From: an uncultured Alphaproteobacteria bacterium
GTDB taxonomy: Bacteria; Pseudomonadota; Alphaproteobacteria; Rhizobiales; Xanthobacteraceae
Direction of reading: 5' to 3'
NCBI GenBank assembly: GCA_963717265.1
Contig: CAVQWD010000011.1
Span: 5,105 to 69,104, forward strand
Length of the DNA: 64,000 bases
The position numbers were made by a program, and so were the translations under genes. Positions 3,032 through 64,000 of the stretch are shown piece after piece (the stretch's first letter is position 1; every line of letters begins with the position of its first letter). Below the pieces are notes generated by a model, which worked only from the letters and a program-made list of their open reading frames with translations, did no database searches and had not been told where the DNA came from.

Positions 3032-3053
3032 GCGTGCGGCATCCGGCACAGTC

Positions 3054-17169: not shown

Positions 17170-17223
17170 AACACCTCTCCCCGCGTGCGGGGAGGGGGAG
17201 TTGAATGTGGGAGTCAAATAACA

Positions 17224-41867: not shown

Positions 41868-41875
41868 GGTGCCCG

Positions 41876-42028
41876 ATGGTGTCCTTCCTTAAAGAGTTCT
41901 GGGCGTTTCTGCGCGTGCGCAAGAAATATTGGCTCCTACCCGTCTTCGTCGTCATGGCGGTGTTCGGCGGGCTCGTCGTGCTGACAAAGGGCACTGCGGT
42001 TGCCCCGTTCATCTACACTCTGTTCTAA
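41876..42028 (+). CDS. SxtK-like / DUF5989 small membrane protein (50 aa)
   Basis: MVSFLKEFWAFLRVRKKYWLLPVFVVMAVFGGLVVLTKGTAVAPFIYTLF. Sandwiched between the SxtJ-like and carbamoyltransferase genes, as in the conserved triad. Confidence 0.65.
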   Translation: MVSFLKEFWAFLRVRKKYWLLPVFVVMAVFGGLVVLTKGTAVAPFIYTLF

Positions 42029-43873: not shown

Positions 43874-44000
43874 TCGGCCTGATTTTTGCGACCGTAAAGA
43901 GACCAGATCTCCGGATTTCTCGATCGCCTGCCGGCCTTGACATCGACGCTTGCTCCAGTAACGTAACTTGCAGCGCAGCATAAAAGCCGGTGGTCCGCAT

Positions 44001-45159
44001 ATGAGCGATCTGCGCCCATCTGGAAGCCTCGGAAAACGCGGGCTTCTCAGAAAACTGGAGCCGGTATTTCTCATCATCCCTTCGGCTTTGATCGGCATAT
44101 TGTTGGTTGAGCTGTTCTGCCGGCTGTTCGTGCCTTCAGTCGGCCCAGCTCAGGACGCATTTGATGGAACGAGGCGTCTGTTTTTTCTCGACGGCGCCGG
44201 CACGATTTTTCAAGACCACGGCGACATATTCACCTTCTTTCCCCACGATGACGTTAGAACCGTTTCGGTATATTTCTCCGATGACGGCTACCAAGTCGTG
44301 TACGACTACCGCTTCCGAACCAACAATTTCGGGTTAGTCCAGGACGCCAACGTCGTGCCCGGACGCGACTCTTCTCCTGATCGTCGGCGACTCCTTCACC
44401 GAAGGACTCGGCGCCGAACCGTGGTTCCGGCTCGTAAGCCCGCAAATCAGCCTGCTCGGCTATCAACCGGTCAATGGCGGATTACGGGGGGCCGGATTCG
44501 AACAGTGGCTCAAGCTCATTCGCTTCTTGACGGCCAAAGACGTCCGCATTCGAAAGCTGGTCGTCGTCTTCATTTCCGACGACTATCATCGAGTGGTGTA
44601 TAACTATAATTCGAACGATCTTCGGTGCCTTACGGATCTCACGCTTTGCGATCTCAAAACGGGAAAGACGTACGTTTATCGTTTGCCGCCGGCGGATCAG
44701 CTCCCGGCCTGGATCGCGAAGCTTAGAGCGGCTCGCGCGCCTCTGACAAAGAAATCGTGGCTTGGATCCCATGTGGCGAAGCTACTGCCGGCGAGCTATC
44801 AGGTTTTCCATTATTTCAAAATGCGTCTCGTAAGCGCCCGGCAGAACGCGCGTTTGGCCGCAGCCGAGGAGCTATCTCGTCGTGCCATTGCCGAATTGGT
44901 CAGGAATTATGGGGCTGAAAACGTCGCGTTCATACACATACCGCAGAAGGGCGAGATCAGCCGGCCGGATGAGCTCGGTTTGAAGGCACGGCAGTCGATC
45001 CGAGACGCGGGTGGGCGATTGTTCGACGGCTTCAAGCTTTGCCATCTGACAGTGTCTGACTATTACGTCTATGACGATCACCCGAACCCCGGCGGCTATG
45101 CCAAAATCGCATCTTGCGTCAATGCCATCTTGCACGGCTGGCTGGCAAAGCCTGAATAA
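44001..45159 (+). pseudogene. Membrane-anchored SGNH/GDSL hydrolase-like protein, +1 frameshift
   Basis: N-terminal TM (VFLIIPSALIGILLVELF). ...NNFGLVQDANVVP continues in the +1 frame as (D)ATLLLIVGDSFTEGLG...block V YVYDDHPNPGGY. Repaired by removing one c of ccc 44358-44360. Confidence 0.7.
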
Positions 45160-45169
45160 GGCGCTGGTG

Positions 45170-46036
45170 CTAAAAGGCGCCGCAGCCGCAAATGACCTGC
45201 TTGAGCGTGTGCAGCAGGACCTTCAGGTCGAGAAGAACGCTTCGTGTGCGCACGTATTCCAAATCCCAGTTCAGGGTTTCGCCCCAGTCCAGAAACCCGC
45301 GTCCGTGGACCTGGGCCAGGCCGGTAATTCCCGGCATGCATGAAAATTTATACATCTCCTCGGGCGTATAGTATTTCAGCACTTCGGACGCCTCCGGACG
45401 CGGGCCTACCAATCGCATGTCTCCGGCGAGGACCGACCACAGGTTCGGCAGTTCGTCTATCGAGAGTTTGCGCAGGATGCGCCCGGCGCGGGTGACTCTG
45501 GGGTCGTGACGAAGCGTCGGAAACCGAGAATGGAACTCCCCCGGTGCAAAATCGTAGGCGTAGAACTCCGGAAAGCGGCTGCGCGCATCGTGAAACATCG
45601 TGCGCAGTTTTATCATCGTGAAATAGGTCGGCACGTAGTACCAGGTCGCCGGCTCGTAACCGCCGGGTGGCGGCTGCAAATCCGATCGATCTCTAAGATC
45701 GCGGCCCAGCACTTTGATCGAGCGCCCCGGACGTCGGTGGTAGAAGATTGGCGGCCCCGGGGAATCGAGGCAGATCACCGCGGCCGCGATCAGGATCAGC
45801 GGCAAGCTGACAATCAGCCCGATCAACGCCGCAGTGATCTCGAAACACCTGTAGCCCGCCTCCGCCAGGTGGCTAGGCGATTGTCCGATTTCGCGGACCG
45901 GCACGGCGTGGACCCGGCCGTGCCTTTGCGCCGCGAAGGCCACCAGCGCCGGCCTCGGATCCACCGAAAGCGCGGCGCCAGCAACTGCGTCGGGCGGGAC
46001 GCGCATTGGCGTTTGCCCTCCTGCGTCCGCCAACAT
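45170..46036 (-). CDS. Polyprenyl-phosphate sugar-1-phosphate (priming) transferase, bacterial sugar transferase family
   Basis: FEITAALIGLIVSLPLILIAAAVICLDSPGPPIF...KLRTM...DPRVTRAGRILRKLSIDELPNLWSVLAGDMRLVGPRP. Confidence 0.85.
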   Translation of the reverse strand: MLADAGGQTPMRVPPDAVAGAALSVDPRPALVAFAAQRHGRVHAVPVREIGQSPSHLAEAGYRCFEITAALIGLIVSLPLILIAAAVICLDSPGPPIFYHRRPGRSIKVLGRDLRDRSDLQPPPGGYEPATWYYVPTYFTMIKLRTMFHDARSRFPEFYAYDFAPGEFHSRFPTLRHDPRVTRAGRILRKLSIDELPNLWSVLAGDMRLVGPRPEASEVLKYYTPEEMYKFSCMPGITGLAQVHGRGFLDWGETLNWDLEYVRTRSVLLDLKVLLHTLKQVICGCGAF

Positions 46037-46055
46037 ATCGGCAGACGCTCCCGCT

Positions 46056-47357
46056 CTACTGGGCGTGCCAGTTCTCCAACGAGTGCGACCACTTGTTGAA
46101 GAAGTCCTTGCTGAGATCGGACAAGGGCAGACCGATCGGCAACCGAGAACGGCCGTATTTCGCGAACGCCAGGTACGCCTTGATTGTCTTGAGATCGTCT
46201 TCCGAAGCCAAGGCAAGGCCCTCGTTGACGAAGTGCATGATCATCCCCTTCTTGAGAGCCGCCTCGAGCATGCGGTCGCGCTCGGACTCCTCTTCCGGCA
46301 GGGCGAAAATGCTGTACAAAATCACGTTGACGTTGCGGTGTTCGACGATGTGCCACAACGTCGGCAGGTGCAGCATGTCTTCGAGATCGAACAACTCGAG
46401 ATCGGCGGTGAGGCCGTTCTTCTTGCTGTAGTCGAGCAGCATGTAGCGCTGCAGGTGCACCGGGATCGGGTACGTCGACGAGGTGTTGTTGGCAACGTAG
46501 AAGATGTTGGACTTGCCGTTGTTGAAGATGACCTCTCGCGACGGCCGCGCAGCAAGTCTCTCCTCTTCCTCCTCGGTCTCGGGAATGAGGTGGAAATAGC
46601 CAGCCGGGATCTTGCGGCCGAGCAGGTCGCCATAGATGCCCTCGGCGATGCGGAAGTCCATGCTGACCCGGGTCTTGTTGGTGAGGTTCGGGTGCCCGGA
46701 GCCGTGGATGTTCTCCTGCGTGAAGGCGCAGAAGCTGCCAGGCTTGGCCTTGATCTGATGGCTGTACTTGTCGAACAGCGCCGTCATGTCTTCCATGCTG
46801 AGCCGCTGGTCGATTGCCTGCTTGATCAGCTCGCGCGACTTCTTGATGCCGATGATCTGCATCGAGCGGCTGCGGTCCTCGTCCTTGGTCACGTCGACGA
46901 ATGGCATCCAAAGGCTGCGCGACGCGATGCCGTGACCGTAGAGCAAGCCCGTGTGATACGGGAAAAACAGGTCTGGCGTGGTCGGCAGCATGATGCGCAC
47001 GTTCATGTACCGTTGCACCGCAACCGGCGTCCGCAGCTTGCCTTTCGGGACGACCACCTCGCGCACGAAGCGGTTGAGCATTCGCCGAAACTCCGGAAGA
47101 TTGGTATCGGCGCAGAGCTGCTTGGTGACTTTGAACGTTTCCGGCTGAGGCACTACCTTGTGCAGGTAATTCAGATCATCGAGCGGGTATCCCATCTTGC
47201 GGATGCGATCGAGAATCCATTCGCTGAACGGAAACCGGTCAGGCGGATACTCAATGATTTGCGCATCCCATTCATGGGTCAGGCTGTACTCCAACTGCTC
47301 GTCGATCTCGTTCGCCTGAACCGGGACTAGCTTCTTGGCCTCGACTGCCACATTCAT
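46056..47357 (-). CDS. Two-domain hypothetical: oxygenase-like N-domain fused to a small C-domain reminiscent of 'sporadic carbohydrate cluster' (LIC12192-type) proteins
   Basis: Uninterrupted 433-aa ORF. N-part has a distal His/RxS-like segment (FTQENIHGSGHP...KTRVSMDFRI). C-part (IFYVANNTSSTYPIPVHLQRYMLLDYSKKNGL...VILYSIFALPEEESERDRMLEAALKKGMIMHFVNEGL) resembles recalled TIGR04323-type sequences. The assignment is tentative. Confidence 0.6.
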   Translation of the reverse strand: MNVAVEAKKLVPVQANEIDEQLEYSLTHEWDAQIIEYPPDRFPFSEWILDRIRKMGYPLDDLNYLHKVVPQPETFKVTKQLCADTNLPEFRRMLNRFVREVVVPKGKLRTPVAVQRYMNVRIMLPTTPDLFFPYHTGLLYGHGIASRSLWMPFVDVTKDEDRSRSMQIIGIKKSRELIKQAIDQRLSMEDMTALFDKYSHQIKAKPGSFCAFTQENIHGSGHPNLTNKTRVSMDFRIAEGIYGDLLGRKIPAGYFHLIPETEEEEERLAARPSREVIFNNGKSNIFYVANNTSSTYPIPVHLQRYMLLDYSKKNGLTADLELFDLEDMLHLPTLWHIVEHRNVNVILYSIFALPEEESERDRMLEAALKKGMIMHFVNEGLALASEDDLKTIKAYLAFAKYGRSRLPIGLPLSDLSKDFFNKWSHSLENWHAQ

Positions 47358-48148: not shown

Positions 48149-49957
48149 GTGAAAGTCTTCAGGCAGCTCTGGTATATTCTCGATCGGCGTGAGCGGATTG
48201 AGGGTCTTTTTCTGCTGGTCTTCATGACGCTCGGCGCTGGCTTGGAAACCGTAAGCATTGGTCTCGTTCTGCCATTTATCCCGATCCTCAATGATCCCAG
48301 CCTGTTGCTCAAGTACACGGCCACCCGCAAACTGGCTTTCTGGCTCGGTTTGCACCAGCCACTGCAGTTGCTGATGGCGGCGGGCTTTGGATTGATCGGC
48401 GCCTTTATCTTCAAGAGTGTTGTCTTGATAGCCTTGTCCCGATTTGAGTTCCGTTACATCTTTTCAATTCACCGCAGATTAAGCAAGCAGCTGATGGCCG
48501 GATATCTGTATGCGCCCTACACGTTCCACTTGCAACGCAACAGCGCGGAACTGATACAGGCCGCAGTCGAGAGCGTTCATCGCTTTGCATCCGCCTTTCT
48601 CATCGGTCTGGTAATGCTGCTGGGGGAATTACTGTTGGTGACGGCGCTTTCGATCCTGCTGTTGATCGTCCAACCGATGGCGACGCTTGCCGCCATAGCT
48701 ATTATTGGATTGCCGACGATCGTCATGGAGCGCGCGATGCGGCGTCGGCTCACCGTGGCCGGACAAGTTGCGAGCCAGAGTTTCGCCGCGGTGCTGCAAT
48801 GGATCGATCAGGCAATCGGCGGGATCAAGGAGACAATCGTTACCGGCCGCGCTTCATTCTTTGTCGGGCGCCAAGATTATTATCTTGGCCGTTTGACCGA
48901 GAGTATGCGAACGTTGACATATCTTTCCGGGATGCCGCGACTACTGATGGACACGGTTACCGTGATCGCCGTGGTCGCCATCGTGCTGATTATCATGATG
49001 CGCGGCCAGAATCTGCAGTCGGTATTGCCGCTTCTGACCGTCTTTGCCGTGGCGGCGATCCGGCTGTTGCCCTCGGCGAGCCGGATTACCAACTCGCTTG
49101 GGCAACTTCGCTATCATTATTCCGCCACCGAAATCGTCTATAAGGAACTGCTCGAAACACAAAGCTACCAGCCGCAGTCACAACGCGTTCGCGCTCCCGA
49201 TCTGGGGCAGCCGCCGCCTTCGCCGTTTCGGCGTTCGCTGGTATTGGAAAACGTATCATTTACCTATCCGTCAAAGTCACTGCCGGCGGTCGACGGCGTG
49301 TCGATGGAGATTGCGAAGGGTGACTGGATAGCTCTGGTTGGACTAACCGGAGCCGGCAAGACTACGCTGATCGACCTTATTCTTGGCCTGTTCACTCCGA
49401 CTTGCGGACGGATTCTCGTCGATGGCCGAGATTTGCAAGACGACATCTTGGGCTGGCAATGCAATATCGGTCTGGTGCCGCAGAGCATCTATCTGATGGA
49501 CGATACGATTCGTCGCAATGTCGCGTTCGGACTGCCCGACGAAATGATCGACGATGAACGGGTGTGGGATTCGCTGCGCGCCGCTCAGATCGACGCCTTC
49601 GTGCGTGCGCTGCCGGGCGGATTGGATGCGATGGTCGGGGAACGGGGCGACCGGATTTCGGGTGGAGAGCGTCAACGGCTGGGTATCGCGCGCGCGCTCT
49701 ATTGCAATTTCGAAGTGCTGGTAATCGATGAGGGCACGGCCCATCTTGATAACGAGACCGAGTCGAGCATCGGGCGAACGCTGAAAGAACTGCGCGGCAA
49801 GAAAACCATTGTAACCATCGCCCACCGATTGGCATTGGTCAAAGACTGCGACCGCATCTTCTTCCTGGACACCGGCCGCATCCGCGCTTGCGGCAACTAT
49901 TCTAGGCTGCTCGCGACCGACCCGGCGTTTCGCAGCCTTGCCGGCGCTTCGGGGTGA
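48149..49957 (+). CDS. ABC exporter, fused TMD-NBD half-transporter (MsbA/PglK-like)
   Basis: Six-TM N-domain, Walker A GLTGAGKTT, signature ISGGERQR, Walker B VLVIDEGT. GTG start. Confidence 0.9.
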   Translation: MKVFRQLWYILDRRERIEGLFLLVFMTLGAGLETVSIGLVLPFIPILNDPSLLLKYTATRKLAFWLGLHQPLQLLMAAGFGLIGAFIFKSVVLIALSRFEFRYIFSIHRRLSKQLMAGYLYAPYTFHLQRNSAELIQAAVESVHRFASAFLIGLVMLLGELLLVTALSILLLIVQPMATLAAIAIIGLPTIVMERAMRRRLTVAGQVASQSFAAVLQWIDQAIGGIKETIVTGRASFFVGRQDYYLGRLTESMRTLTYLSGMPRLLMDTVTVIAVVAIVLIIMMRGQNLQSVLPLLTVFAVAAIRLLPSASRITNSLGQLRYHYSATEIVYKELLETQSYQPQSQRVRAPDLGQPPPSPFRRSLVLENVSFTYPSKSLPAVDGVSMEIAKGDWIALVGLTGAGKTTLIDLILGLFTPTCGRILVDGRDLQDDILGWQCNIGLVPQSIYLMDDTIRRNVAFGLPDEMIDDERVWDSLRAAQIDAFVRALPGGLDAMVGERGDRISGGERQRLGIARALYCNFEVLVIDEGTAHLDNETESSIGRTLKELRGKKTIVTIAHRLALVKDCDRIFFLDTGRIRACGNYSRLLATDPAFRSLAGASG

Positions 49958-51232
49958 GAACATCTCCGCCGGCGGTCGTCCGCCGCGGGATTCACTCGCA
50001 CCTTAATTTCCACGTCTCGGCTGATATCTCGGCTGCTCAACAACGCCGCGTCATCGAGATGTACTGCGCATTTTGGACGACAGCCCCATGCCTCCGCCGC
50101 GACGCAGCGGGACTTGTCGAACTAAGCCAAGAGTGCTTGTATCTTCAAAGTGATTCGGCGTTATCCTCAACTGCCATGAGGCCTCCAGACTATGCCGAAT
50201 ATAGACCCGCCCGAAGTCGAATCCAACGTCCGTCCTAAATCTTCCACTGTATTCTACGATGGCGCGCTGATCGGCCCGCCAGAGTTTATCGAAGAGTTGA
50301 TCCGCAAGAAATCTGCTCTTGCCTGCAATGAAGACGGCGCTGGCCAACGCCCTGCGTCTGAGGCCGGACAGAATTCGGACGCCGGCGGGGTAGATCCGCT
50401 GCAAAGCGCCCCGTTCCGGCTGGTGGCGTGAGGGATCGTCACAACCTTTGGAATATATTATGAAAATACGCAACCTTTGTCCGAGGCATACGGCAGGCCA
50501 ACACTGTCCTTGGTGCCCGTAATCCGGAGCGGACCAGCGACCGCTCCGGCAATCCTGCCGCCGCGCGCGCTCCAGGATGCGGCGACGGAAAGGCAATTCC
50601 GGCACTTGCAGACGTTCAAGCTGGCAGAGAGACGCGATAATTCCGGCGATTCCAGCTAGGGCGCGGCCTGCTTCCAGAAAATAAATCGGCAACATCGCCA
50701 TTGGCGTTGCCAGATAGTCGTCGGCGGTGCTATCGGCTTCTGACGACGACGGGGCCGTGCGACGGACACGGTCAAGGCCGTTCGGAGGAGGACTGCACGG
50801 GGCGAGCCGCCCGCCGACGGGCTGCCGAATCCCTCCTTCAGATTTGGCTTTTTCCAGCACCTTTACCCTTGCATCCGGCAACCGCCCTCCGGTCTAACGA
50901 CAGGCGGCCGTCCGGCGTGGAATGCGTTACGCTTCGGGTTTGTCTGACGCCTCGCTTGAAGCCGGCGCTCCTTCGGCAGATCGTTGCGCGGCTATGAGTT
51001 GGACTACGCATTCGATCCATCGGTCAACATTAGACCAGCGGCGGCATCCACGTGTGCGCAACTCCCAACGTCACATCGTGTCTCACGCATTGAAATGTCT
51101 GAGAGCAGACAGCATTCCACGATTGTAAGAACGTCCGGGGGGCGTCGCCGAAATCCATATTTCGCTTGACTTGAAAGACACGCTCTGGCCACTATTTTCG
51201 GATAGAGCAGCTCAGTTTTAGGGGTATACGAA

Positions 51233-51976
51233 GTGCTGCAAAAACTGCCGACGAAGCTGCTGCGGTTGAGCGAGCTCAGGCGGTTGATGTCTGAGACGCT
51301 GGAGTTGCGACAAGCGTTTTCGGCGCTGCACGCGCAGATCCGGCTGAGCGACACTTTCCAATCGGGAAAGTCTATCCTGATAACAAGCTCACGGCCGCAG
51401 GAAGGCAAGACGACCGTTGCGACCTGCCTCGCCATCACGGCATCGCTCGCGGGCCAGCGCGCGCTCTTGATCGATGGTGATCTGCGCCGGCCGTGGATCG
51501 GCTCGGCGCTTGGACTTGCCAACGGTCTGGGCCTTAGCGACGTCTTGGACGGTCGCGCCGAACCGGCAGAAGTCGTCTACGACGTCAACCTGTTTGATGA
51601 CGGACCAGAGGCTGCGAGCCTCAGCGTCATGTCTGCTGGCTGTAAACCCGCATCGTTCCTTCCGGCGGTTGATTGGTCGAAAGCGCGCCGAGTGTTCCAG
51701 TCCATGTCAGAGCAGTTCAGCGTTATCATACTCGATACGCCGCCGGTTCTGGCTGCAAATGACGCATTGTTGCTTGCCCGCATCGTGGACGCGGTGCTCC
51801 TCGTCATCGGCGCCGGAAGAGCTGATCGCGATGAGGTGTTGCAGACGAAGCAGCTCCTGGAGCCGGCCGGCGTTCCAATCGTCGGCGCTGTGCTCAATAG
51901 CTTCGACCCGAAGGAGCACGGCAAATCGTCACAGCCTCATGGCGCCTATTACTCCGCTCATCGCCTCGAGGTCTAG
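51233..51976 (+). CDS. Stand-alone BY-kinase-type (CpsD/CapB-like) polysaccharide tyrosine autokinase ATPase
   Basis: Walker A SSRPQEGKTT, A' LLIDGDLRRP, B VIILDTPPV. GTG start after AGGGG. Confidence 0.85.
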   Translation: MLQKLPTKLLRLSELRRLMSETLELRQAFSALHAQIRLSDTFQSGKSILITSSRPQEGKTTVATCLAITASLAGQRALLIDGDLRRPWIGSALGLANGLGLSDVLDGRAEPAEVVYDVNLFDDGPEAASLSVMSAGCKPASFLPAVDWSKARRVFQSMSEQFSVIILDTPPVLAANDALLLARIVDAVLLVIGAGRADRDEVLQTKQLLEPAGVPIVGAVLNSFDPKEHGKSSQPHGAYYSAHRLEV

Positions 51977-51986
51977 GAGCGGACCG

Positions 51987-53000
51987 ATGGCGAATGCAAG
52001 GCCTGCTGGCGATATTGAGCCGGGGCGAGTCGGGATGCTGTCCATCATCATCGCCACCTATAACGCGGCCGAGCTGTTGTCGGGTTGTCTGAAATCGATA
52101 TACCAGAACCCGCCGAGCCTCGATTACGAAATCATCGTCGTCGATGACGCTTCCTACGACGGCACAAGCGAGACGGTGCGCGCTTGCTTTCCGGATGTCC
52201 GCCTTTTCACCAATACGACCAATCGGCATTATGCGAGCTCGAATAACCTGGCATTCGAACATGCTCGCGGCGAATTCCTCTACCTGCTGAACAACGATAC
52301 AGTCATGCTGCCAGGCGCACTCGACGCGATGATTGCTTTTCTACAAGCCCATCCCGAGGTGGGCGTAGTCGGCAGCACGTTGTTGAACGAAGACGGGACG
52401 ATTCAATGGTCGGTCAAATCGCTGCCCAATGTCGGCTCGGCGCTGTTCGGAGCCCGATCGATCATCTCCCGCGTATTCCGCGGCAATCGGTTTTCGCGAA
52501 GACACCTGCTGCACCTTGATCGCGACCTGTCGCAGCCACTCGTCGCCGGCTACGTTTCCAGCGCATCGATGATGATGCCGCGCCACGTCGTGCGCAAGGT
52601 CGGCGGACTCGACGAGCGGCTGTCGTATCACGTGGACGCCGACTACTGCAAAAGAGTGACCGATCTCGGCTACCAGTGCTACTACCTGCCTGACGCACGG
52701 GTGATGCATTTGAATCACAGGGGCGGCACGATGGTGACGCGAAGGCGGCGTTTCCGCTCGGTGCTCGAGTTCCACCGCGGCAGCTACATTTTTTTCCAAA
52801 AGCATCTCCGCAACAGCGCCTCAGCCTTGACGCGACTTATCGTGCCGGCTGGACTGTTCCTGCGATTCGTATGCTGCATCACGATTCAAGCGGTGATCGA
52901 GCTTTGCACGATGACGTTCGCGTTCGCCAGCAGGTTACTTGGTATCTCGACGCGGCGCGCGAGATCGGCAGCGCCGATGTCGCCCGCGATCCAGCCATGA
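51987..53000 (+). CDS. GT2-family glycosyltransferase (distinct from the downstream array)
   Basis: ATG 51987 after AGGAG. LSIIIATYNAAELL...IIVVDDASYDGT...LLNNDT. Confidence 0.85.
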   Translation: MANARPAGDIEPGRVGMLSIIIATYNAAELLSGCLKSIYQNPPSLDYEIIVVDDASYDGTSETVRACFPDVRLFTNTTNRHYASSNNLAFEHARGEFLYLLNNDTVMLPGALDAMIAFLQAHPEVGVVGSTLLNEDGTIQWSVKSLPNVGSALFGARSIISRVFRGNRFSRRHLLHLDRDLSQPLVAGYVSSASMMMPRHVVRKVGGLDERLSYHVDADYCKRVTDLGYQCYYLPDARVMHLNHRGGTMVTRRRRFRSVLEFHRGSYIFFQKHLRNSASALTRLIVPAGLFLRFVCCITIQAVIELCTMTFAFASRLLGISTRRARSAAPMSPAIQP

Positions 53001-53019: not shown

Positions 53020-53934
53020 ATGAGAGTGCTTGCTCACGTTCATACTTTCAACGATGCCGACATCATCGAGGGGACCATTGCGTCGGTGTTGCAACAGACC
53101 CGCCCAGTGGACGGGCTCCTTCTTGTCGACAATGCCTCGACCGACGGCACACTCGACCAACCTTCCCTCAAGCATGCCACTGTCATGCGCCACTCGGAAA
53201 ATCGGGGTACCAGCGGCGCCGTCGTCACCGGCATGCGGTACGCGCTTGAGCGAGGTTACGACTGGATCTGGCTGTTTGATGCCGACAGCAATCCTGAACC
53301 AGACGCGCTGGAGAAGCTGCTGGAACTGTACGCCAGTTGGCCGCACGACGTGCAGGAAAAGGTGGGGTATATCGCCTGCCTTCCATTCGATGCAAAAGAT
53401 CACTTTCCGTATCACGCCAGCGTATTCGCTCCGCGTGGATTCATGAAGGTCACCCCGAAGCCAGATGAATACTACTATTCCTGCCATATAACGCTGTGGT
53501 CGGGGATATTGTTTCGCTTGGCGGCGGTTCGCCGTATTGGATTGCCCAATCCGGATTACGTGCTCGATTGGGGTGAATGCGAATATGCCTATCGCGTGAT
53601 GAAGGCTGGATATCAAGGCTACATGCATCAGCAGGCCTTGCTCCACCACAACACTCGCGGTAAGACGAGCATGCCTGCCCCCGAAGGCGAGCGTGGACCG
53701 GCGGAGTTCGCATTTCACAGGTTTCCGCCGATACGCTGCTATTACTTGTGCCGCAATGCCGTTTATTTTGCGCTATACGAAGAGGCAGATGGACATTTTC
53801 GTCTGGTATGCCTGGGAATGCTTGTACTGACCATGAAACTTTTCGTCCGGCCGTGGCATCACGGCAAGCAAATTAGCGCGTGCTTCCGCGGCATGTGGCA
53901 CGGGCTCACCGGAAACATCGCCGCGCGTTACTAA
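53020..53934 (+). CDS. GT2-family glycosyltransferase, tandem paralogue 1 of 5
   Basis: MRVLAHVHTFNDADIIEGTI...VDNASTDGT...WLFDADSNPEPDAL...PPIRCYY...GNIAARY-stop. Confidence 0.85.
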   Translation: MRVLAHVHTFNDADIIEGTIASVLQQTRPVDGLLLVDNASTDGTLDQPSLKHATVMRHSENRGTSGAVVTGMRYALERGYDWIWLFDADSNPEPDALEKLLELYASWPHDVQEKVGYIACLPFDAKDHFPYHASVFAPRGFMKVTPKPDEYYYSCHITLWSGILFRLAAVRRIGLPNPDYVLDWGECEYAYRVMKAGYQGYMHQQALLHHNTRGKTSMPAPEGERGPAEFAFHRFPPIRCYYLCRNAVYFALYEEADGHFRLVCLGMLVLTMKLFVRPWHHGKQISACFRGMWHGLTGNIAARY

Positions 53935-53939
53935 GACCA

Positions 53940-54863
53940 ATGCGTGTCCTTGCCCACATTCACACCTTCAATGACGCCGATATCATCGACCGAACCATCG
54001 AGGCGGTGCGGCGACAAACGCGTCCCGTGGACGGCATCCTCGTTGTCGATAACGCGTCGAGCGACGGCACACTCGATCAACCGTCGCTAAAGAATGCGAC
54101 GGTCATACGCCATTCGGAGAATCTGGGAACCAGCGGCACCGTCGTCACCGGCATGCGGTACGCGCTTGAAAGAGGCTACGATTGGATTTGGCTGTTTGAT
54201 GCCGACAGCAATCCGGAGCCGGACGCGCTGAGGAAGTTGCTTGAACTCTACGCCGGCTGGTCGCCGAAACTTCAGGCCGAGACGGGCTTTATCACCTGCG
54301 TGCGTTATAATGTCGAGAATGGGACGGCTGAATACGGTGGCCTATTCACTCCCTACGGATTAACCACAGCCACGCCGGCCGCAGACGCCCGCTGTGTGCC
54401 CTGTCACTTCAACTTCTGGTCCGGTTGCCTGTATCGTCTGGCCGTCGTGCGCGAGATCGGCCTTCCCAATGCCGACTACGTGCTCGACTGGGGTGATGGC
54501 GAATATGGTTATCGCGTGATCAAGGCCGGATACAAAGCGTTCGTTGACCGCGAAGCGGTGCTGCACCACAACATACGCGGCTATGAAACTCTGACTCCAA
54601 TCAAAGTGCGGCGCGGAGAGACCACCGTCACAATGCACGACTTCCCGCCAATTCGCTGCTACTACCAGTGCCGCAATATACTCTATTTCATGCTGTACGA
54701 CGTTGGTCAGCTGCGGATGTGGGTGCATAATCGAGCCGTGTTAGGTCCGGCGTCATTGATGTTCAGGCTGTTACAGCAGCCGAGGCGCCATGAAAAGCAT
54801 CTTCGCGCCTGCCTGCGGGGGATTTGGCACGGACTTACCGGCAATATCGCGGCGCGGTACTAG
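53940..54863 (+). CDS. GT2-family glycosyltransferase, tandem paralogue 2 of 5
   Basis: Starts 5 nt after the previous stop. Same N- and C-terminal signatures (MRVLAHIHTFNDADIIDRTIEAVRRQTRPVD...GNIAARY). Confidence 0.85.
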   Translation: MRVLAHIHTFNDADIIDRTIEAVRRQTRPVDGILVVDNASSDGTLDQPSLKNATVIRHSENLGTSGTVVTGMRYALERGYDWIWLFDADSNPEPDALRKLLELYAGWSPKLQAETGFITCVRYNVENGTAEYGGLFTPYGLTTATPAADARCVPCHFNFWSGCLYRLAVVREIGLPNADYVLDWGDGEYGYRVIKAGYKAFVDREAVLHHNIRGYETLTPIKVRRGETTVTMHDFPPIRCYYQCRNILYFMLYDVGQLRMWVHNRAVLGPASLMFRLLQQPRRHEKHLRACLRGIWHGLTGNIAARY

Positions 54864-54868
54864 CAGCG

Positions 54869-55789
54869 ATGCGCGTTCTCGCTCACATCCACACATTCAA
54901 TGACGCCGACATCATTGACCGAACGATCGAGGCGGTGCGGCGCCAAACCCGTCCTGTGGACGAGATCCTCGTTGTCGATAACGCGTCGAGCGATGGCACG
55001 CTCGATCAACCGTCGCTGAAGAATGTGACGGTCATACGCCATTCGGAGAATCTTGGAACCAGCGGCACCGTCGTCACCGGCATGCGCTACGCGCTGGAAG
55101 GAGGCTACGATTGGATCTGGCTGTTTGATGCCGACAGCAATCCGGAGCCTGACGCACTGGAGAAGTTGCTCGAACTCTATGCGGGCTGGCCGCAAAGCCT
55201 TCGCGACCAAACATGCTTCATCGCCTGCGTGCATTATAATGTCGAAGACGGGGTTGCGCAGTACGGCGGCGTATTCACCCGTTCGGGGTTTACCGAGGCG
55301 AAGCCCTCCTCCGACGCCCGCTATTTGCCCTGTCACTTCAACATCTGGTCCGGCTGCCTGTACCGTCTGGCTGCGGTGCGCGAGATCGGCCTTCCCAATG
55401 CAGACTACGTGCTCGACTGGGGCGAAGGCGAGTATGGGTATCGGGTGATGAAGGCCGGCTACAAGGCGTTCATCGACCGAGAAGCGGTACTGCACCACAA
55501 CATTCGCGGATACAGAACCCTCACTCCGGTCAAAGTACGGCGCGGAGCGGCTACCGTCACCATCTATGAATTTGCCCCGATTCGCTGCTACTATTCATGC
55601 CGTAACATACTTTATTTCATGTTATATGATGGTCGGTTGCAGCTGTCGCTACTGCCTCGCGCAGTGTTGGTTCCGGGGTCACTCCTGCTGGGGTTTTTGC
55701 GGCAGCCCAGGCAGCATGGAAAACATCTTCGCGCCTGCCTGCGAGGGATATGGCACGGACTGACCGGCAACATCGCTGCGCGGTACTAG
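54869..55789 (+). CDS. GT2-family glycosyltransferase, tandem paralogue 3 of 5
   Basis: Starts 5 nt after the previous stop. By eye roughly 80% aa identical to paralogue 2. Confidence 0.85.
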   Translation: MRVLAHIHTFNDADIIDRTIEAVRRQTRPVDEILVVDNASSDGTLDQPSLKNVTVIRHSENLGTSGTVVTGMRYALEGGYDWIWLFDADSNPEPDALEKLLELYAGWPQSLRDQTCFIACVHYNVEDGVAQYGGVFTRSGFTEAKPSSDARYLPCHFNIWSGCLYRLAAVREIGLPNADYVLDWGEGEYGYRVMKAGYKAFIDREAVLHHNIRGYRTLTPVKVRRGAATVTIYEFAPIRCYYSCRNILYFMLYDGRLQLSLLPRAVLVPGSLLLGFLRQPRQHGKHLRACLRGIWHGLTGNIAARY

Positions 55790-55794
55790 CGGCG

Positions 55795-56718
55795 ATGCGC
55801 GTTCTCGCTCATATCCACACGTTCAACGACGCGGATATCATCGATCGAACGATTGATGCAGTGCTGCGGCAGACGCATCCCGTAGACGAAATCGTGGTTG
55901 TCGACAACGCCTCCACCGATGCCACGCTGGAGCAGCGCTCGCTGCGAAATGTCACGATTCTGCGGGAGCGGGAAAATGTGGGAACGAGCGGCGCCGTTGT
56001 CAGAGGAATGCGGTATGCACTGGAGAAGAATTACGATTGGATTTGGATCCTCGACGCCGACAGTTTCGTGGAACCGGAAGCACTGGCGAAACTACTCGAA
56101 CTCTATGACGAGATACCGCGAGACATGCGGCGGCGGACCGCCTTTGTCGCCTGCCTGCCGCGCAATCTGAAGGACGGCAAACCCTATCACGGCGCCTTGT
56201 TCACGCCGCGCGGCCTTGCGTTATGCACTCCGCGACCAAACGAACGCTGCTATCCGTGCCACATCAGCATCTGGTCCGGATCGCTGTACCGCATGGCGAC
56301 TGTCCGCGAGATCGGCGTACCCAATCCGGACTATGTGCTCGACTGGGGCGAATTCGAATACGGCAATCGTGTCAAAAAGGCAGGGTACCAAGGTTTCATT
56401 GATCAGACGTCGATCCTGCGTCACAATGTTCGCGGTGCTCCGAGCCTCAACCCCGTCGACATCAGTCTCGGATTTGCCAGGGCTACGGTCTACGAGTTCC
56501 CTCCGATACGCTGCTATTACATGGCCCGCAATATGCTCTATTTCCTGCTTTACGATGCCGCGCAGGGACGGCTGGCGCTGGCGCGCCGCGTCGTTTGGAC
56601 CACCTGCAAGTTGACGGCTAATTTTTTGCTGAGGCCGCGCAACCACAAAAGGGAAATTGTCGCGTGCTTCCGCGGCATCTGGGACGGCGTCAGCGGCAAT
56701 ATCGCAGCACGGTACTAG
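55795..56718 (+). CDS. GT2-family glycosyltransferase, tandem paralogue 4 of 5
   Basis: Starts 5 nt after the previous stop. MRVLAHIHTFNDADIIDRTIDAVLRQTHPVD...ILDADS...GNIAARY. Confidence 0.85.
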   Translation: MRVLAHIHTFNDADIIDRTIDAVLRQTHPVDEIVVVDNASTDATLEQRSLRNVTILRERENVGTSGAVVRGMRYALEKNYDWIWILDADSFVEPEALAKLLELYDEIPRDMRRRTAFVACLPRNLKDGKPYHGALFTPRGLALCTPRPNERCYPCHISIWSGSLYRMATVREIGVPNPDYVLDWGEFEYGNRVKKAGYQGFIDQTSILRHNVRGAPSLNPVDISLGFARATVYEFPPIRCYYMARNMLYFLLYDAAQGRLALARRVVWTTCKLTANFLLRPRNHKREIVACFRGIWDGVSGNIAARY

Positions 56719-56811
56719 AGCAATGCACATTTCGCCCCACCTGCGTCCCCGCGCTCAGCCACCACTCGTCTGCTGGCGACACTGCAGTGGCGGACGCGCC
56801 GGTTCAATTCC

Positions 56812-57783
56812 GTGCCGAACGCCGTGAAAGTCCTTGCATACCTTCATACCTTCAACGACGCCGACGTCGTCGAGGGGACGATTGAAGCACTCTGCGCACA
56901 GACTTACCCAATTCCGGAGATTCTCCTTGTCGACAACGCTTCCACCGATGCGACCCTCGACCGGACGTTTCCGAGCAAGGTCACGATTATCAGGAACAGT
57001 TACAATCTCGGAACCAGCGGCGCGGTGGCGATCGGGATGGAGTATGCCATCGCCAATGGCTACGACTGGATCTACATTCTCGACGCCGATTCGACCCCAC
57101 AGCCGGATGCGATCGACAAACTGGTGCGCTGCTTCGAAGGCTTCAGCCCGGAATTGCAGGCAAGCACGTGGCGGCTGAGCAGCTTGCTTAAGGACAACGG
57201 CGTTGAACCCCATGAGGGCGTGATATTCACCCCGCGCGGCGTCGAGCTGGTTCGACCTCCTGCGAAGCCGTCGTATTATGCGTGCGACAGCAACATGTGG
57301 AGCGGAAGCCTTTATCGGCTCGATGTGGTGCGCAAGCTTGGGCTGCCCAATCGTGACCTTGTGCTCGACTGGGGCGACATCATCTATGGCTACGAAGGCG
57401 CGGTCCGCGGCTATACAGGGTTCGTTGAGCGATCGAGCGTCGTCACCCACCATCTGCACCCGTTCGAGACCCTGCACATTCGCCGCTTCGGCTTGCGTTC
57501 GGTCAAGATGGCCTATTCACCGCCGATGCGCTGCTATTATCATTGGCGCAACAGCATTTATTTCTGGCTTTACGTCTACCGCGGCAACAGGTTTGGTCCA
57601 GCGACCATCAGCCAATTCACGATGTTTCTCAAATGGTCGATCAAGGCGGTGCTGTTCCTAAAGAAGCCGTGGCCGATCCTGCAGGCTTGTTTTCGCGGCC
57701 TCTGGGACGGCATCCACGCCCGTCTGGAGAATCGCTACGGCTCGACGGTTCCGCCGCCCCTGCCGCCGTCCGCCGAACGCTGA
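56812..57783 (+). CDS. GT2-family glycosyltransferase, tandem paralogue 5 of 5 (most divergent)
   Basis: VKVLAYLHTFNDADVVEGTIEAL...VDNASTDAT...ILDADSTPQPDAI...PPMRCYY. By analogy the start may be GTG 56824 rather than 56812. Confidence 0.8.
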   Translation: MPNAVKVLAYLHTFNDADVVEGTIEALCAQTYPIPEILLVDNASTDATLDRTFPSKVTIIRNSYNLGTSGAVAIGMEYAIANGYDWIYILDADSTPQPDAIDKLVRCFEGFSPELQASTWRLSSLLKDNGVEPHEGVIFTPRGVELVRPPAKPSYYACDSNMWSGSLYRLDVVRKLGLPNRDLVLDWGDIIYGYEGAVRGYTGFVERSSVVTHHLHPFETLHIRRFGLRSVKMAYSPPMRCYYHWRNSIYFWLYVYRGNRFGPATISQFTMFLKWSIKAVLFLKKPWPILQACFRGLWDGIHARLENRYGSTVPPPLPPSAER

Positions 57784-57798
57784 GAGCAGTAGGCGTCG

Positions 57799-59403
57799 TC
57801 ACGAGCCCCGCGAGAGAGCCGGGACTGTGTGCGGCCCACCGATGAGCGGCGGCCCTGCAACGACCTGTGCCGCCCACTTTCGCTCCGACGCGGCCAGACG
57901 GGCTGTGACGACGATCAGACCGGCGAGGAGCCAGACCAATGCACTGATCGAATGGCCGGCAAGCGGATTGTCGCCGAGATTTTGAAACGCCAGACTCGAC
58001 AGACCGCCGATAATCCCCGCCAGCAACACCTTGGCCTCAAGGTCGGCCGTCCTCATCGATTGGAACGCAAAGGCAATAATTTTCCCAAAGAAACCGAAAA
58101 ACAACAGAAATCCGACGATTTCGGATTCTATAAGAATGACGAGATAATGGCAGGGAATTGCCGCCTGGGCGGCATTTGGACCTTCCGTAGGCAGGCCCTC
58201 AAACGCATATTTTAGCGCGGAGGAGCCGTTGTTCAAACCAACGCCGAGGATTGGCTGATGCCAATAGCTCTCGATTGCTATTTCGGCATACGCAAAGCGT
58301 GCGTGATAGCTGGCCGGGCGCGTCTCGAGGAACGGGATCAGAAACGGCAAGCTCGCCAAAACCGCCGCAACGAATGCAACGACGCACAACATGAATGTCC
58401 GCCGGGAAATAAGCTCAGCCCATCGCCCGACAAGAAAGAATGCCGTACTTCCGACAACCAGGCCCAACAGTCCAGCTCGCGAATACGTCAGATAGGACGC
58501 CAGATAGCCCAACGCCAGTAGTCCGCCGAACAGTAGCACATCCCGCCGCCGTCTGGCCGCCACCAGGAAAGCGAGCGCGAACGGCGCGGTGAGCCCGATA
58601 TAGCAGGCTGCGATCGCCGGATGGGCGAATATCCCCTCGCTGCGTTTTGCGTCTTTGGTGCTCTTGGCGTTGTCGACATACATGGTGCCCTCGGCCCGGC
58701 CGTTTCGATCTCGGGGTGCTTGCTTGGAAAATAGGAAGTCGAAGGCCCTATTGCCGGTTCCTACGCCGAGAGCGGAATAGGCAATCACAGAGGTCGATGC
58801 GACCGCAAACCCGACAAATATCGCCGCGACGACGATCCGTAGATGTTTGCGCGTCCTGAGGTTGTTGATGAGATACAGGAACGACAGGAAATACAAAAGT
58901 TGCCGGCACCACTCGAAGTAGGCGGCGTATGGCGATACTGCCACTGTCACGCAGCCGATCAGCGCCCAGGCCAGGTAGAAGACAAAAAGATAGCAGACCG
59001 TGGGAAAATACGGCCGTTCGTGATTGATACAAAGCCGGACCAGCCATTGCAGCACCATCGGGATCAGGATGGCGTCCGTCAAGAAGAAATCCATGCTCAG
59101 ATTGCCGGCGGTTGGCGGTCCGTATTGTTGGATCAATATTTCTGGTGCCACGATCCACCGCGACAGACTCTTATAGATGTCGAACGGGATCGAGACGGCC
59201 AAAAGAAACAGCCAATAGGCCTTGGCATCTTTCAGCAGCAAGGTCGGAAGAAACACAACGAGACCAACGAACATAACCATGATGATGGGCAGCCGCAAAT
59301 CGATCATCGTCAGTACGGTGATGACGCCGGCCAGGATTCCGATTGCAACCACGGCGACGCCAAGCTGGCGCGGCTTGTTTGTTATGCCTAAGACGACCGA
59401 CAC
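57799..59403 (-). CDS. Wzy-like polymerase / O-antigen-ligase-domain membrane protein
   Basis: More than 10 hydrophobic helices with a large loop. GTG 59403 is preceded by GAGAGAGGA. The family call rests on topology and context only. Confidence 0.65.
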   Translation of the reverse strand: MSVVLGITNKPRQLGVAVVAIGILAGVITVLTMIDLRLPIIMVMFVGLVVFLPTLLLKDAKAYWLFLLAVSIPFDIYKSLSRWIVAPEILIQQYGPPTAGNLSMDFFLTDAILIPMVLQWLVRLCINHERPYFPTVCYLFVFYLAWALIGCVTVAVSPYAAYFEWCRQLLYFLSFLYLINNLRTRKHLRIVVAAIFVGFAVASTSVIAYSALGVGTGNRAFDFLFSKQAPRDRNGRAEGTMYVDNAKSTKDAKRSEGIFAHPAIAACYIGLTAPFALAFLVAARRRRDVLLFGGLLALGYLASYLTYSRAGLLGLVVGSTAFFLVGRWAELISRRTFMLCVVAFVAAVLASLPFLIPFLETRPASYHARFAYAEIAIESYWHQPILGVGLNNGSSALKYAFEGLPTEGPNAAQAAIPCHYLVILIESEIVGFLLFFGFFGKIIAFAFQSMRTADLEAKVLLAGIIGGLSSLAFQNLGDNPLAGHSISALVWLLAGLIVVTARLAASERKWAAQVVAGPPLIGGPHTVPALSRGS

Positions 59404-59676
59404 TGCAAATCCTCTCTCAAGTGATCGCCGGCGGCAGGCCGGACAGACCCGCAATTAAACCACATCGCACTTGACCAGCGAAAAGATCTCTGGCGTGTCG
59501 GGACACATTCAATCCCTTGGCACCGGGTTCCGTCCGGGTCGGGTACATCGCCTTGGATGCCAGCACTTCACCCGATTCCGGTGGCGATTGAGGCATCGCA
59601 AACCCGCTGTGGCGGGACAACCGCATCCCTTTTTGCCTCAAATACCGAGATGGCGTCACGGCCTATCCTGCCCGGT

Positions 59677-61827: not shown

Positions 61828-63039
61828 ATGTGGCGTAAACGAAGTTCACGGTCCGTAATTCCTCTTCTTGCGATGCTGGGACTCTGCGGATGCGGGTTCG
61901 TCACCCCGCAGGCGGGGCCGTCGAGCGTTGCCATCAATCTCGATCTGCCGTCAACAACGGGGCTCCACTATGGCTTGGTCGAGATTACGCCCAAGGTCAT
62001 CGATATTCTTGCTCGCGCCGAGCCATGGAGCATCGCCGGAGCGTTTTCCGATAAGCGTCCGCCGCCCGAGATTAAGTTTGGCGTCGGTGACGTGCTCAGC
62101 GTATCCATTTTCGAAGCGGCGGCTGGCGGCCTATTCATTCCGATCGAAGCGGGCGTCCGTCCGGGCAATTTTGTTACCCTTCCGAACGAGCCCATCGACG
62201 CGGCGGGAAATATTTCCGTGCCGTATGCAGGAGCAATCCAAGCAGCGGGCCTGACCCAAAGTCAGGTGCAGGCGGAAATCGTCAAAGCCCTCGGCAATCT
62301 CGCAATTCGGCCGCAGGCGGTGGTTGCGCTGGCAACGCAAAACACCTCTCTGATCAGCGTGCTGGGCGAGGTCAATCAGCCCAATCGCTTTCCCGCTCAG
62401 CCAGCGGGCGAGCACATTCTCGATGCCATAACGCGAGCGGGAGGCATTAAGGATCAGGGCTACGACACTTGGGTGGTGCTCGAACGCCATGGCCGTCGCG
62501 CCGCCGTACCGTTTGGCGCTCTGATTTACGATCTGAGAAACAACATCTGGGTGCATCCGGGGGATACCATCTACGTCTACAGCCAACCGCAGACCTTTTT
62601 GGCGTTTGGCGCGTTCGCCTTTGGGGCGGCGAACGCGGCAAGCCAGCAGGCGCAGTTTTCATTCGGTAATTGGCGCATAACCCTCGCGGAGGGCGTCGCC
62701 AAGACGGGTGGCCTGCTTGACTCGCAAGCTGACCCGGCATCGGTTTACCTGTACCGCCGCGAGCCGCGCCAGCTCGCCGACGCACTCGGCGTCAACGTCC
62801 GCGGATACCGTAGAGAATTAATCCCGATTATTTATCACATCAGCTTCCGCGACCCGGCGGGCTACTTTCTGGCCACCAGGTTTCTGATGCGAGACCATGA
62901 CATCGTCTTCGCGGCGAACGCACACACGGTGGAGATGACCAAACTGCTGGTGTTCCTCCAGACCGCAATAAATACCTACGGAGACGTCGCAGCCGCGGGC
63001 TTAAATTCCGAGCAGTGGCGAATACTTTCCAAACAGTAA
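61828..63039 (+). CDS. Outer-membrane polysaccharide export lipoprotein (Wza/ExoF-like, OPX family)
   Basis: Lipobox LLAMLGLCGCG. Export-domain pattern GVGDVLSVSIFEA...ISVPYAGAIQAAGLTQSQVQAEI...ISVLGEVNQPNRF. Confidence 0.85.
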   Translation: MWRKRSSRSVIPLLAMLGLCGCGFVTPQAGPSSVAINLDLPSTTGLHYGLVEITPKVIDILARAEPWSIAGAFSDKRPPPEIKFGVGDVLSVSIFEAAAGGLFIPIEAGVRPGNFVTLPNEPIDAAGNISVPYAGAIQAAGLTQSQVQAEIVKALGNLAIRPQAVVALATQNTSLISVLGEVNQPNRFPAQPAGEHILDAITRAGGIKDQGYDTWVVLERHGRRAAVPFGALIYDLRNNIWVHPGDTIYVYSQPQTFLAFGAFAFGAANAASQQAQFSFGNWRITLAEGVAKTGGLLDSQADPASVYLYRREPRQLADALGVNVRGYRRELIPIIYHISFRDPAGYFLATRFLMRDHDIVFAANAHTVEMTKLLVFLQTAINTYGDVAAAGLNSEQWRILSKQ

Positions 63040-63064: not shown

Positions 63065-64000
63065 TCACGAAGCCGCGAGCTGCAGCTCTTCAGCCGGCAT
63101 CCGAGGGATGGTCGCGAGAACCTTCAGTCCAACAAGGTCCTCGACTTCGCGAATGCTGCGGACACTCCGATTTAGATATTCCAGCAAAAACACAAGACCT
63201 GCGCCCATGACCAACCCACCAAGGAGCGATCCCAGTGCAAATACCGCATGGGTCGGACCAGATGGATATTGTGGCGGAACCGCTTGACCGACCAACTCCA
63301 GCTCATGCTCGGCGTAGGAACCTTTGATCTGAGCTTCTTGATATTCCTTGTCGACGGCCTCGTAGGCCGTAAGTGCACTCTTCTCGGCGAGATCCAGCGC
63401 TTTGAATTCCCGCTCCATTTCAGGCAGCTCGCTCAGTTTCGCCTGCCGGTCACGAAGCTGACTGAGAATGTTCGCCTGCTTGGCAGCAAGAGTCACACTT
63501 GATGTCGACGCGTTATTTTGACTCGCCACCGCCCTCAAGCCCGCAACGGTTTCCTCCAATTTGCCCAGCTCGGTTTGCAAGTCGGCTATGACCTTAAGTT
63601 GGGATTCATACTCCGAGTTGTATTTGAACATGTTGTGCGCCTGCTTGAAAGCTTCCACATTCTCGCGTGCAAGTCTGACTTGCTGGCGCGTCTTATCCAA
63701 CTCTGTGCGCAGTGCGTCTCGGGCTCGCTGTCCTTCCGACTGACGCAGCTCGCCGATGGTTGCGACAAGCAATCCCGCTGCCGAGTTGGCCACCTCTGAC
63801 GCCAGACGCGCGTCCTTCGCCGTATATTTTATTGTGAAAAGATAGGTCTCAGCGCGCGCCTCCAACGCCAGGTTAGTTTCCACGTTTTTGACGGCTTGGG
63901 CAAAGTTGTCCTTCGGGATCACGGTGCCATATACCGCAACCGACAGCGCGTTCCTGACGAATTGCTTGAGGTCATCGAAGGCCCGCTTTATCGACTCGGG
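63065..64000 (-). CDS. Polysaccharide co-polymerase (PCP/GumC/Wzz-like chain-length determinant), N-terminus outside window
   Basis: The frame stays open upstream to the window edge (PESIKRAFDDLKQFVRNALSVAVYGTVIPKDNF...). Long coiled-coil region, then a C-terminal TM (HAVFALGSLLGGLVMGAGLVFLLEYL). Confidence 0.8.
   Translation of the reverse strand, partial: PESIKRAFDDLKQFVRNALSVAVYGTVIPKDNFAQAVKNVETNLALEARAETYLFTIKYTAKDARLASEVANSAAGLLVATIGELRQSEGQRARDALRTELDKTRQQVRLARENVEAFKQAHNMFKYNSEYESQLKVIADLQTELGKLEETVAGLRAVASQNNASTSSVTLAAKQANILSQLRDRQAKLSELPEMEREFKALDLAEKSALTAYEAVDKEYQEAQIKGSYAEHELELVGQAVPPQYPSGPTHAVFALGSLLGGLVMGAGLVFLLEYLNRSVRSIREVEDLVGLKVLATIPRMPAEELQLAAS

Follow-up and report, generated by a model that had tools for sequence, protein, structure and literature searches.

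The repeat unit of succinoglycan is built by successive glucosyltransferases, ExoA, ExoL, ExoM, ExoO and ExoU as well as ExoW (PMC1403797). Several transferases of that Wzy-dependent alphaproteobacterial cluster each add, in succession, one sugar of like kind to a lipid-linked unit that a polyprenyl-phosphate sugar transferase has primed (PMC1403797), a mode of assembly that may be shared by the locus described here. Within a 64-kb stretch of DNA from an uncultured soil bacterium of the Xanthobacteraceae (contig CAVQWD010000011.1 of assembly GCA_963717265.1; hereafter the window), five intact glycosyltransferase family 2 (GT2) genes, G1 to G5, lie head to tail on the plus strand at 53020–57783, as seen in an open reading frame (ORF) listing and by direct extraction. 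Our preferred reading, to which we give a probability of about 0.6, is that G1–G5 are successive, non-redundant transferases, one for each step in the assembly of a lipid-linked repeat unit. The exo genes differ from this array in being spread over two operons (exoHKLAMONP and exoUVWTI), interleaved with other genes and without a fixed 5-nt junction. G1–G5 also belong to a subfamily of their own, and the curated models closest to it are a rhamnosyltransferase and GlfT1. The Exo enzymes are homologous GT2 proteins. Beyond the succinoglycan precedent we found nothing specific in the literature on tandem arrays of paralogous bacterial glycosyltransferases. The array is genuine and evolutionarily old, its limits are clear and it is of a familiar kind, multi-glycosyltransferase exopolysaccharide loci being standard; what stands out is that same-family arrays recur across phyla and carry a stereotyped 5-nt junction.

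The five copies are 41–82% identical in amino acids and 53–82% in nucleotides, with G2 and G3 alone at 82% amino-acid identity and all other pairs at 41–60%. Synonymous divergence (dS) amounts to 0.64 between G2 and G3 and exceeds 1.2 in all remaining pairs, the ratio of non-synonymous to synonymous divergence (dN/dS) lies between 0.13 and 0.40, and no two copies match exactly over more than 32 nt, so that the array holds neither near-identical units (~95% of nucleotides or more) nor long exact repeats. An earlier note on this DNA, made from the letters alone, had proposed an identity matrix and a phylogeny of the copies, and both describe old paralogues. Judged by these sequences, G1–G5 are old, diverged and intact, under purifying selection and with no recent amplification. 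Slow birth-and-death of tandem duplicates is the best explanation for the array, because it mixes ancient paralogues with one lineage-specific, not recent, duplication. The proportion of synonymous differences (pS) in codons 51–105 is lower among G1, G2 and G3 (0.24–0.52) than in other segments (0.41–0.82), and these codons may be an old conversion tract.

Non-synonymous divergence is concentrated in residues 106–161 and 257–296. For pairs among G1–G4 other than G2/G3, the proportion of non-synonymous differences (pN) is 0.38–0.52 in these two modules, against 0.05–0.21 in residues 1–105, in residues 162–216 and in the C-terminal GNIAARY segment; for G2/G3 it is 0.21–0.26 in the modules and at most 0.03 in the core regions. 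An AlphaFold2 model of G4, made with 124 homologues as input (predicted local distance difference test (pLDDT) 85.3, predicted template modelling score 0.86), places residues 106–161 in a beta-rich segment after the DxD strand and residues 257–296 in C-terminal helices modelled at lower confidence (pLDDT 61–76). The nucleotide sugar of a GT-A enzyme is bound by the N-terminal half of the protein, while the acceptor site is formed largely by the C-terminal half. Conservation of the N-terminal nucleotide-binding half and of the catalytic core therefore suggests a common donor type, and the position of the divergence in the two modules suggests different acceptors or linkages; taken together, the pattern would fit a common donor type used on different acceptors. 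With a conserved donor-side core and two delimited variable modules, the five paralogues of this locus and the dozens of arrays related to it thus amount to a natural experiment in which what makes a GT-A enzyme specific for its acceptor and linkage could be mapped directly by module swaps.

All five proteins match the GT2 model PF00535 (67.4–88.1 bits; cut-off 23.3). A profile search retrieved 63,175 proteins at E≤0.001 from a library of 1.84 billion representatives and only 192 clusters at E≤1e-30, which marks a small, distinct subfamily. Residues D37, N38, D87, D89, D183, H210, R239, Y241, Y242, R245 and N246 are invariant among the 124 homologues and kept in all five copies, and C240, within the R239-C-Y-Y block, is invariant in the five and nearly so across the homologues. 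The DxD motif (D87-A-D89, G1 numbering), likewise invariant in both sets, aligns with the acidic motif of heparosan synthase. Since all family-invariant residues are retained, no copy looks catalytically dead. The motifs MRVLAH.HTFNDAD, VDNAS.D(G/A)T and (L/I)xDADS that the earlier note had read in all copies are present, and GNIAARY does end four of them (G1–G4), but PPIRCYY is not universal, G3 reading APIRCYY. Sequence and model together indicate one small GT2 subfamily with a GT-A fold and a DxD motif, presumably inverting.

That fold was recovered by comparison of the G4 model with the PDB, which gave 475 matches at E≤0.001. All of the 50 matches listed belong to GT-A glycosyltransferases, the top ones among them being GlfT2, GalNAc-T2 and the rhizobial fucosyltransferase WrtF (probability 1.00, 15–20% identity), and heparosan synthase is also listed. 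Mycobacterial GlfT2, like GlfT1 a GT2 galactofuranosyltransferase, resembles the array proteins in having a GT-A core followed by C-terminal helices (template modelling score 0.66–0.69, normalised to the query), but identity is only 15–17%, and with its 630 aa it acts as a processive, bifunctional polymerase, in contrast to the single-domain proteins G1–G5 of about 305 aa. Matches to the PDB at the sequence level are weak and confined to the nucleotide-binding half, for which the chondroitin synthase K4CP and the heparosan synthase PmHS2 are best (E-values of 1e-6 to 1e-7 over ~100 residues). These two synthases carry two GT-A modules side by side, as do P0166, P0173 and other fused distant relatives described below; they differ in being alternating co-polymerases, not repeat-unit transferases.

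The product is harder to name. The earlier note offered a rhamnan- or galactan-like backbone as an example, which the data do not establish: among curated families, TIGR01556, of WbbL-type rhamnosyltransferases, gives each of the five proteins its highest score (58.0–90.5 bits) and the GlfT1 model NF050113 the second highest (49.8–66.7 bits), both far below their cut-offs of 200.55 and 330, so that G1–G5 are members of neither. The labels 'rhamnosyltransferase' and 'GlfT1' occur in source annotations of homologues, some named GlfT1 by the Joint Genome Institute, and are unreliable because the similarity is sub-threshold. The 64-kb window contains no sugar-nucleotide synthesis genes. One related locus (L079, 255–2936) has rmlD, rmlB and rmlC, above NCBIfam cut-offs, directly upstream of a five-copy same-family array; neither the window nor any of the other close loci examined has rml genes, and we therefore rejected neighbouring genes as a guide to the donor. 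No glf gene (UDP-galactopyranose mutase) was found near any array in the gene tables and ORF family scans made. The only hints of a rhamnose donor are thus the best-scoring model, itself below threshold, and rmlBCD beside the L079 array, and the absence of dedicated sugar-nucleotide genes elsewhere would fit equally well with common donors such as UDP-glucose or UDP-galactose.

Relatives of the array were collected from a scan of one genome per species and from a metagenome scan that added 80 soil contigs. The family occurs in tandem in metagenome-assembled genomes (MAGs) of Alphaproteobacteria/Hyphomicrobiales (including Methylocella), Candidatus Binataceae and Nitrospiraceae. After removal of duplicates, complete same-strand runs comprised two copies in 2 loci, three in 8, four in 3 and five in 3, and further runs of five (L041) and about six (L053) copies are cut by contig ends. 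Five copies therefore stand at the upper end of the range without being exceptional, and the earlier note overstated its case in calling a five-fold array unusual, given that 13 further complete loci, all independent, hold same-family arrays of three to five copies and that contig ends cut at least two others. Its proposal to compare copy number among related strains could be followed at some distance: number and clade composition do differ between loci (1 to at least 6 copies), but in the nearest, the Alphaproteobacteria/Hyphomicrobiales MAG loci L010, L038 and L040, the G4 orthologue is only 76–77% identical in amino acids. Members of the subfamily are frequent among soil Alphaproteobacteria, Binataceae and Nitrospiraceae, and exopolysaccharides are important to soil for its aggregation and its retention of water.

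These three loci share their surrounding gene order with the window. Each carries an opposite-strand clade-C copy followed by three tandem copies, namely a G4 orthologue, a clade-B member ending in HMERRY and a G5 orthologue. G4 is the orthologue of the first tandem gene in all three, and G5 that of the last, next to Wzy, in L038 and L040. The clade-C copy of L040 occupies the position equivalent to a gap at 49958–51232 in the window, those of L010 and L038 lying slightly further upstream, and the spacer between G4 and G5 stands where the closest relatives have their clade-B member; neither the spacer nor the 1.27-kb gap holds a detectable remnant of clade B or C. The window thus has neither clade and has three further clade-A copies, G1–G3. 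Neighbour-joining bootstraps were 100 for G2 with G3, 100 for G4 with its L010, L038 and L040 counterparts, 93 for G5 with those of L038 and L040, and 0 for monophyly of G1–G4; the tree fixes no position for G1 within clade A. On this phylogeny only G2/G3 is a lineage-specific duplication among the array copies.

Gene order in L004, from a Binataceae MAG, also appears alike (oxygenase-like, Wza-like, ABC, ATPase, GT2, array, Wzy-like), as judged by position and N-terminal sequence only, and suggests that the entire cluster has moved horizontally between phyla. Array members are frameshifted or N-terminally truncated in L010 (11715–12768), L053 (3157–4625) and L007 (13036–13857). The G5 orthologue of L010 is split at about residue 90 and the L053 member into two ORFs; such broken members may be either decaying copies or long-read indel errors. 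Among distant relatives, four proteins of 615–657 aa (P0166, P0173, P0208 and P0261) have two tandem GT2 domains and look like fused tandem duplicates, and each half of P0166 ends in GxRGD..S(R/W)Y, reminiscent of GNIAARY.

Extraction reproduced the five same-strand genes of ~305 aa and the 5-nt gaps that the earlier note had given for the first four: G1/G2, G2/G3 and G3/G4 are separated by exactly GACCA, CAGCG and CGGCG, with start-to-start periods of 920, 929 and 926 bp. The 93 nt it had placed before the fifth gene hold with the more upstream of two GTG codons (Table 1); the homologous junction of the closest relatives (CGCC-GTG-AAA-GTC) points to the other (M-K-V-L-A-Y) as the probable G5 start, which makes the gap 105 nt. 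Among the 116 tandem pairs of all loci, 56 have 5 nt between stop and start, 16 have 4 nt and 11 have 6 nt, although these counts are not independent events because the sequences are phylogenetically related. Forty-eight distinct 5-nt junctions give the consensus ..CGN-TAY-TAG-nnCCG-ATG-CGN-GTN, with C at −2 in 44 and without a Shine-Dalgarno-like sequence. That the spacing has been kept while synonymous sites are saturated suggests that it is under selection. The junction may represent translational coupling by termination and re-initiation, which would yield successive enzymes in nearly equal amounts. Fusion of neighbouring copies by programmed frameshifting or read-through was considered and set aside, as each following ATG lies in a different frame (stop plus 5 nt) and no slippery site was seen by eye. 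The downstream frame is open upstream of each ATG, but alternative frames can be expected to stay open in DNA of 58% GC.

Judged by its gene content, the array sits in a Wzy-dependent exopolysaccharide locus with a priming transferase, a PglK-like ATP-binding cassette (ABC) protein, a bacterial tyrosine kinase (BY-kinase)-like ATPase, Wzy and Wza. We propose that the priming phosphotransferase would load the first sugar on a polyprenyl-phosphate carrier, and that the GT2 upstream of the array and then G1–G5 would each add one sugar from the same or a similar nucleotide sugar, G1–G5 acting on different acceptors or making different linkages. Once finished, the repeat unit would be flipped, for which the PglK-like ABC protein is a possible agent, and Wzy would then polymerise it for export by way of Wza. 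The earlier note had suggested one dedicated enzyme per similar linkage, and this gains from the copies being intact, selected and old, from the orthologues of G4 and G5 and from the two modules in which the copies differ, though the function itself is deduced from these features. Several points weigh against it. Models that name a donor sugar reach 50–90 bits where their cut-offs are 200 and 330, and the function of the whole subfamily is a prediction from sequence and fold. G2 and G3 could still do the same job. The variable modules might reflect relaxed constraint instead of new specificity, and in residues 257–296, the region of low model confidence, pN approaches pS. To regard the ABC exporter as a candidate flippase for lipid-linked oligosaccharide is a guess, and no Wzx-like protein (MOP family) was found among the ORFs scanned at 41–64 kb; the cluster runs off the end of the window, so that the set of glycosyltransferases seen may be partial.

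Redundancy would be the plainest alternative, with several copies, above all G2 and G3, catalysing the same reaction and the array kept for the amount of enzyme it yields. The near-identity of the G2 and G3 core regions within an overall identity of 82% and the motifs common to all copies would suit it, but amplifications kept for dosage are normally young and nearly identical. Even G2 and G3 have a dS of 0.64 and differ in the variable modules, the other pairs are at most 60% identical, and G4 and G5 persist as separate orthologous lineages in other genomes, which makes dosage unlikely. The same distances bear on the idea, also raised in the earlier note, of a recombination-prone array in which frequent unequal crossing-over would create copy-number and chimera variation within a population and hence variation in the glycan. 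Variation in copy number and clade composition between related loci, the low pS of codons 51–105 in G1–G3, compatible with an old conversion tract, and the broken copies in L010, L053 and L007 are what such an array might leave behind. Yet nucleotide identity of 53–82% and a longest exact match of 32 nt make a poor substrate for RecA-dependent exchange, with dS at or above 0.64 no duplication or homogenisation is recent, and there are no simple-sequence tracts to suggest phase variation; we regard this explanation as quite unlikely. What stands of the idea is that copy number and composition vary between lineages, which fits slow birth-and-death evolution; a recombination-prone array on the scale of a strain is not supported.

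Two further possibilities, both doubtful in our view, concern how the products might work together. The paralogues may form one complex, an assembly line in which the tight junctions fix the proportions of the subunits, and this would add to the stepwise reading, not replace it. The recurrence of the 5-nt stop–ATG junction across phyla, the natural fusions of two GT2 domains and the wording 'complex of glucosyltransferases' used for succinoglycan in a rhizobial review (PMC1403797) are compatible with it; these supports are indirect, however, the fused proteins scoring 130–183 bits against about 450 for close relatives, and short junctions are common in operons without complex formation. A wider version, held with similar reserve, would have coupled modules joined by TAG-nnCCG-ATG make up an evolvable cassette system, in which their duplication, loss or replacement rewrites the repeat unit and their products form a hetero-oligomeric line. 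If that were true, the window would be a variant with three extra clade-A modules where its relatives carry clades B and C. An artefact, with fewer real copies and a unit duplicated by the assembler, has next to no chance of being correct. The copies differ at 18–47% of nucleotides, each with its own substitutions and indels, which an assembler cannot invent, and more than 15 unrelated contigs carry arrays of a similar kind. Moreover, an independent short-read contig (L037; Logan, ERR12036785) matches window 55120–59165 at 99.9%, covering the 3′ part of G3, G4, G5 and Wzy; on the inter-copy divergence and this contig we rejected assembly duplication. L037 ends inside the 32-nt repeat common to G1 and G3 (55112–55143), where an assembler working with short k-mers would be expected to break. 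An exact-protein look-up returned no record of G1, G2 or G3, so that the G1/G2 and G2/G3 junctions stand without independent confirmation, a lack that fits short-read assemblies breaking at exact repeats of 31–32 nt. A neighbouring gene at 43968–45159 is frameshift-split relative to locus L001, and the assembly may hold indel errors.

The array lies among the genes of Table 1. GC content falls from ~0.63 to ~0.58 from about 42 kb on, across the polysaccharide locus (~42000–64000). The ATPase, the other GT2 and G1 to G5 form a co-directional string, of which the ATPase is probably the first gene of the transcription unit; a promoter-like site precedes it (51171–51198, a consensus match only), and a terminator scan gave only consensus-level matches, not above background. 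The earlier note was right that the GT2 before the array is of another type: it is missed by the five-copy profile and so belongs to a different subfamily, and that profile found no family member in the window other than G1–G5. For the Wzy-like protein, polymerase and ligase are indistinguishable by sequence. No structured RNA or riboswitch at 41–64 kb matched Rfam at gathering score.

Table 1. Positions in the window of the array genes and of the other features of the polysaccharide locus.
Feature	Position	Strand	Remarks
SxtJ/DUF5989 small membrane protein	41429–42028		At locus edge, before carbamoyltransferase
NodU/CmcH-type carbamoyltransferase	42038–43873	+	Start of low-GC polysaccharide island
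Polyprenyl glycosylphosphotransferase, priming enzyme	45170–46216	−	PF02397 164 bits; TIGR03025 197.8 bits, below cut-off 295
'Sporadic carbohydrate cluster' 2-oxoglutarate (2OG)-Fe(II) oxygenase-like protein, 433 aa	46056–47357	−	
Fused transmembrane- and nucleotide-binding-domain ABC exporter, PglK/MsbA-like	48149–49957	+	PglK best match, 284.8 bits; cut-off 1000
P-loop ATPase, BY-kinase or CbiA/MinD-like	51233–51976	+	CbiA 24.7 bits; cut-off 25.4; syntenic CbiA-like gene in L040
GT2 of different subfamily	52032–53000	+	PF00535 98.9 bits; 19-nt gap to G1
G1, GT2 paralogue, 304 aa	53020–53934	+	ATG..TAA; clade A
G2, GT2 paralogue, 307 aa	53940–54863	+	ATG..TAG; clade A, sister of G3
G3, GT2 paralogue, 306 aa	54869–55789	+	ATG..TAG; clade A, sister of G2
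G4, GT2 paralogue, 307 aa	55795–56718	+	ATG..TAG; clade A
Spacer between G4 and G5, 105 nt	56719–56823		
G5, GT2 paralogue, 319 aa	56824–57783	+	GTG..TGA; clade D; alternative GTG 56812 gives 323 aa
Wzy/O-antigen-ligase-like polymerase	57799–59454	−	PF04932 Wzy_C 39.8 bits; cut-off 31.7; convergent with G5; syntenic in L038, L040
Conserved protein, 555 aa	59677–61344	−	Matches neither Pfam nor NCBIfam
Wza-type outer-membrane polysaccharide export protein	61828–63039	+	Poly_export 57.2 bits and SLBB
Wzz-like ORF	63065–63922	−	No Pfam Wzz match; syntenic homologues in L038, L040 carry PF02706

From the carbamoyltransferase at the locus edge, the polysaccharide may be O-carbamoylated. The conserved 555-aa protein is a candidate unknown component of such polysaccharide loci: L038 and L010 have a homologue directly beside their Wzy-like gene, and L040 has one nearby, in opposite orientation relative to Wzy (68–72% nucleotide identity). 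The ORF start of the priming enzyme is probably over-extended. The oxygenase-like protein encoded beside it has sub-threshold matches to TIGR04324 (2OG-Fe(II) oxygenase) and TIGR04323 (LIC12192 family) and looks like a fusion; a protein with a similar N-terminus is encoded in L004 at 1727–3076. The gap between the ABC exporter and the ATPase contains no convincing gene, only ORFs without a family match.

Two overlapping plus-strand ORFs, 43968–44603 and 44527–45159, together correspond to a single 387-aa ORF of L001 (15911–17074) that has a GDSxS-type motif and resembles an SGNH/acyl-esterase. The window gene carries a frameshift and is either a pseudogene or the product of an assembly indel error. 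The rest of the window encodes unrelated metabolism. At 13915–18060 a molybdopterin oxidoreductase with a domain like the large subunit of pyrogallol hydroxytransferase is followed by a 4Fe-4S subunit, and ring-cleavage-type genes at 5–10 kb (extradiol dioxygenase, FAA hydrolase and PrpD-like) form an aromatic-compound catabolic neighbourhood unrelated to the array.

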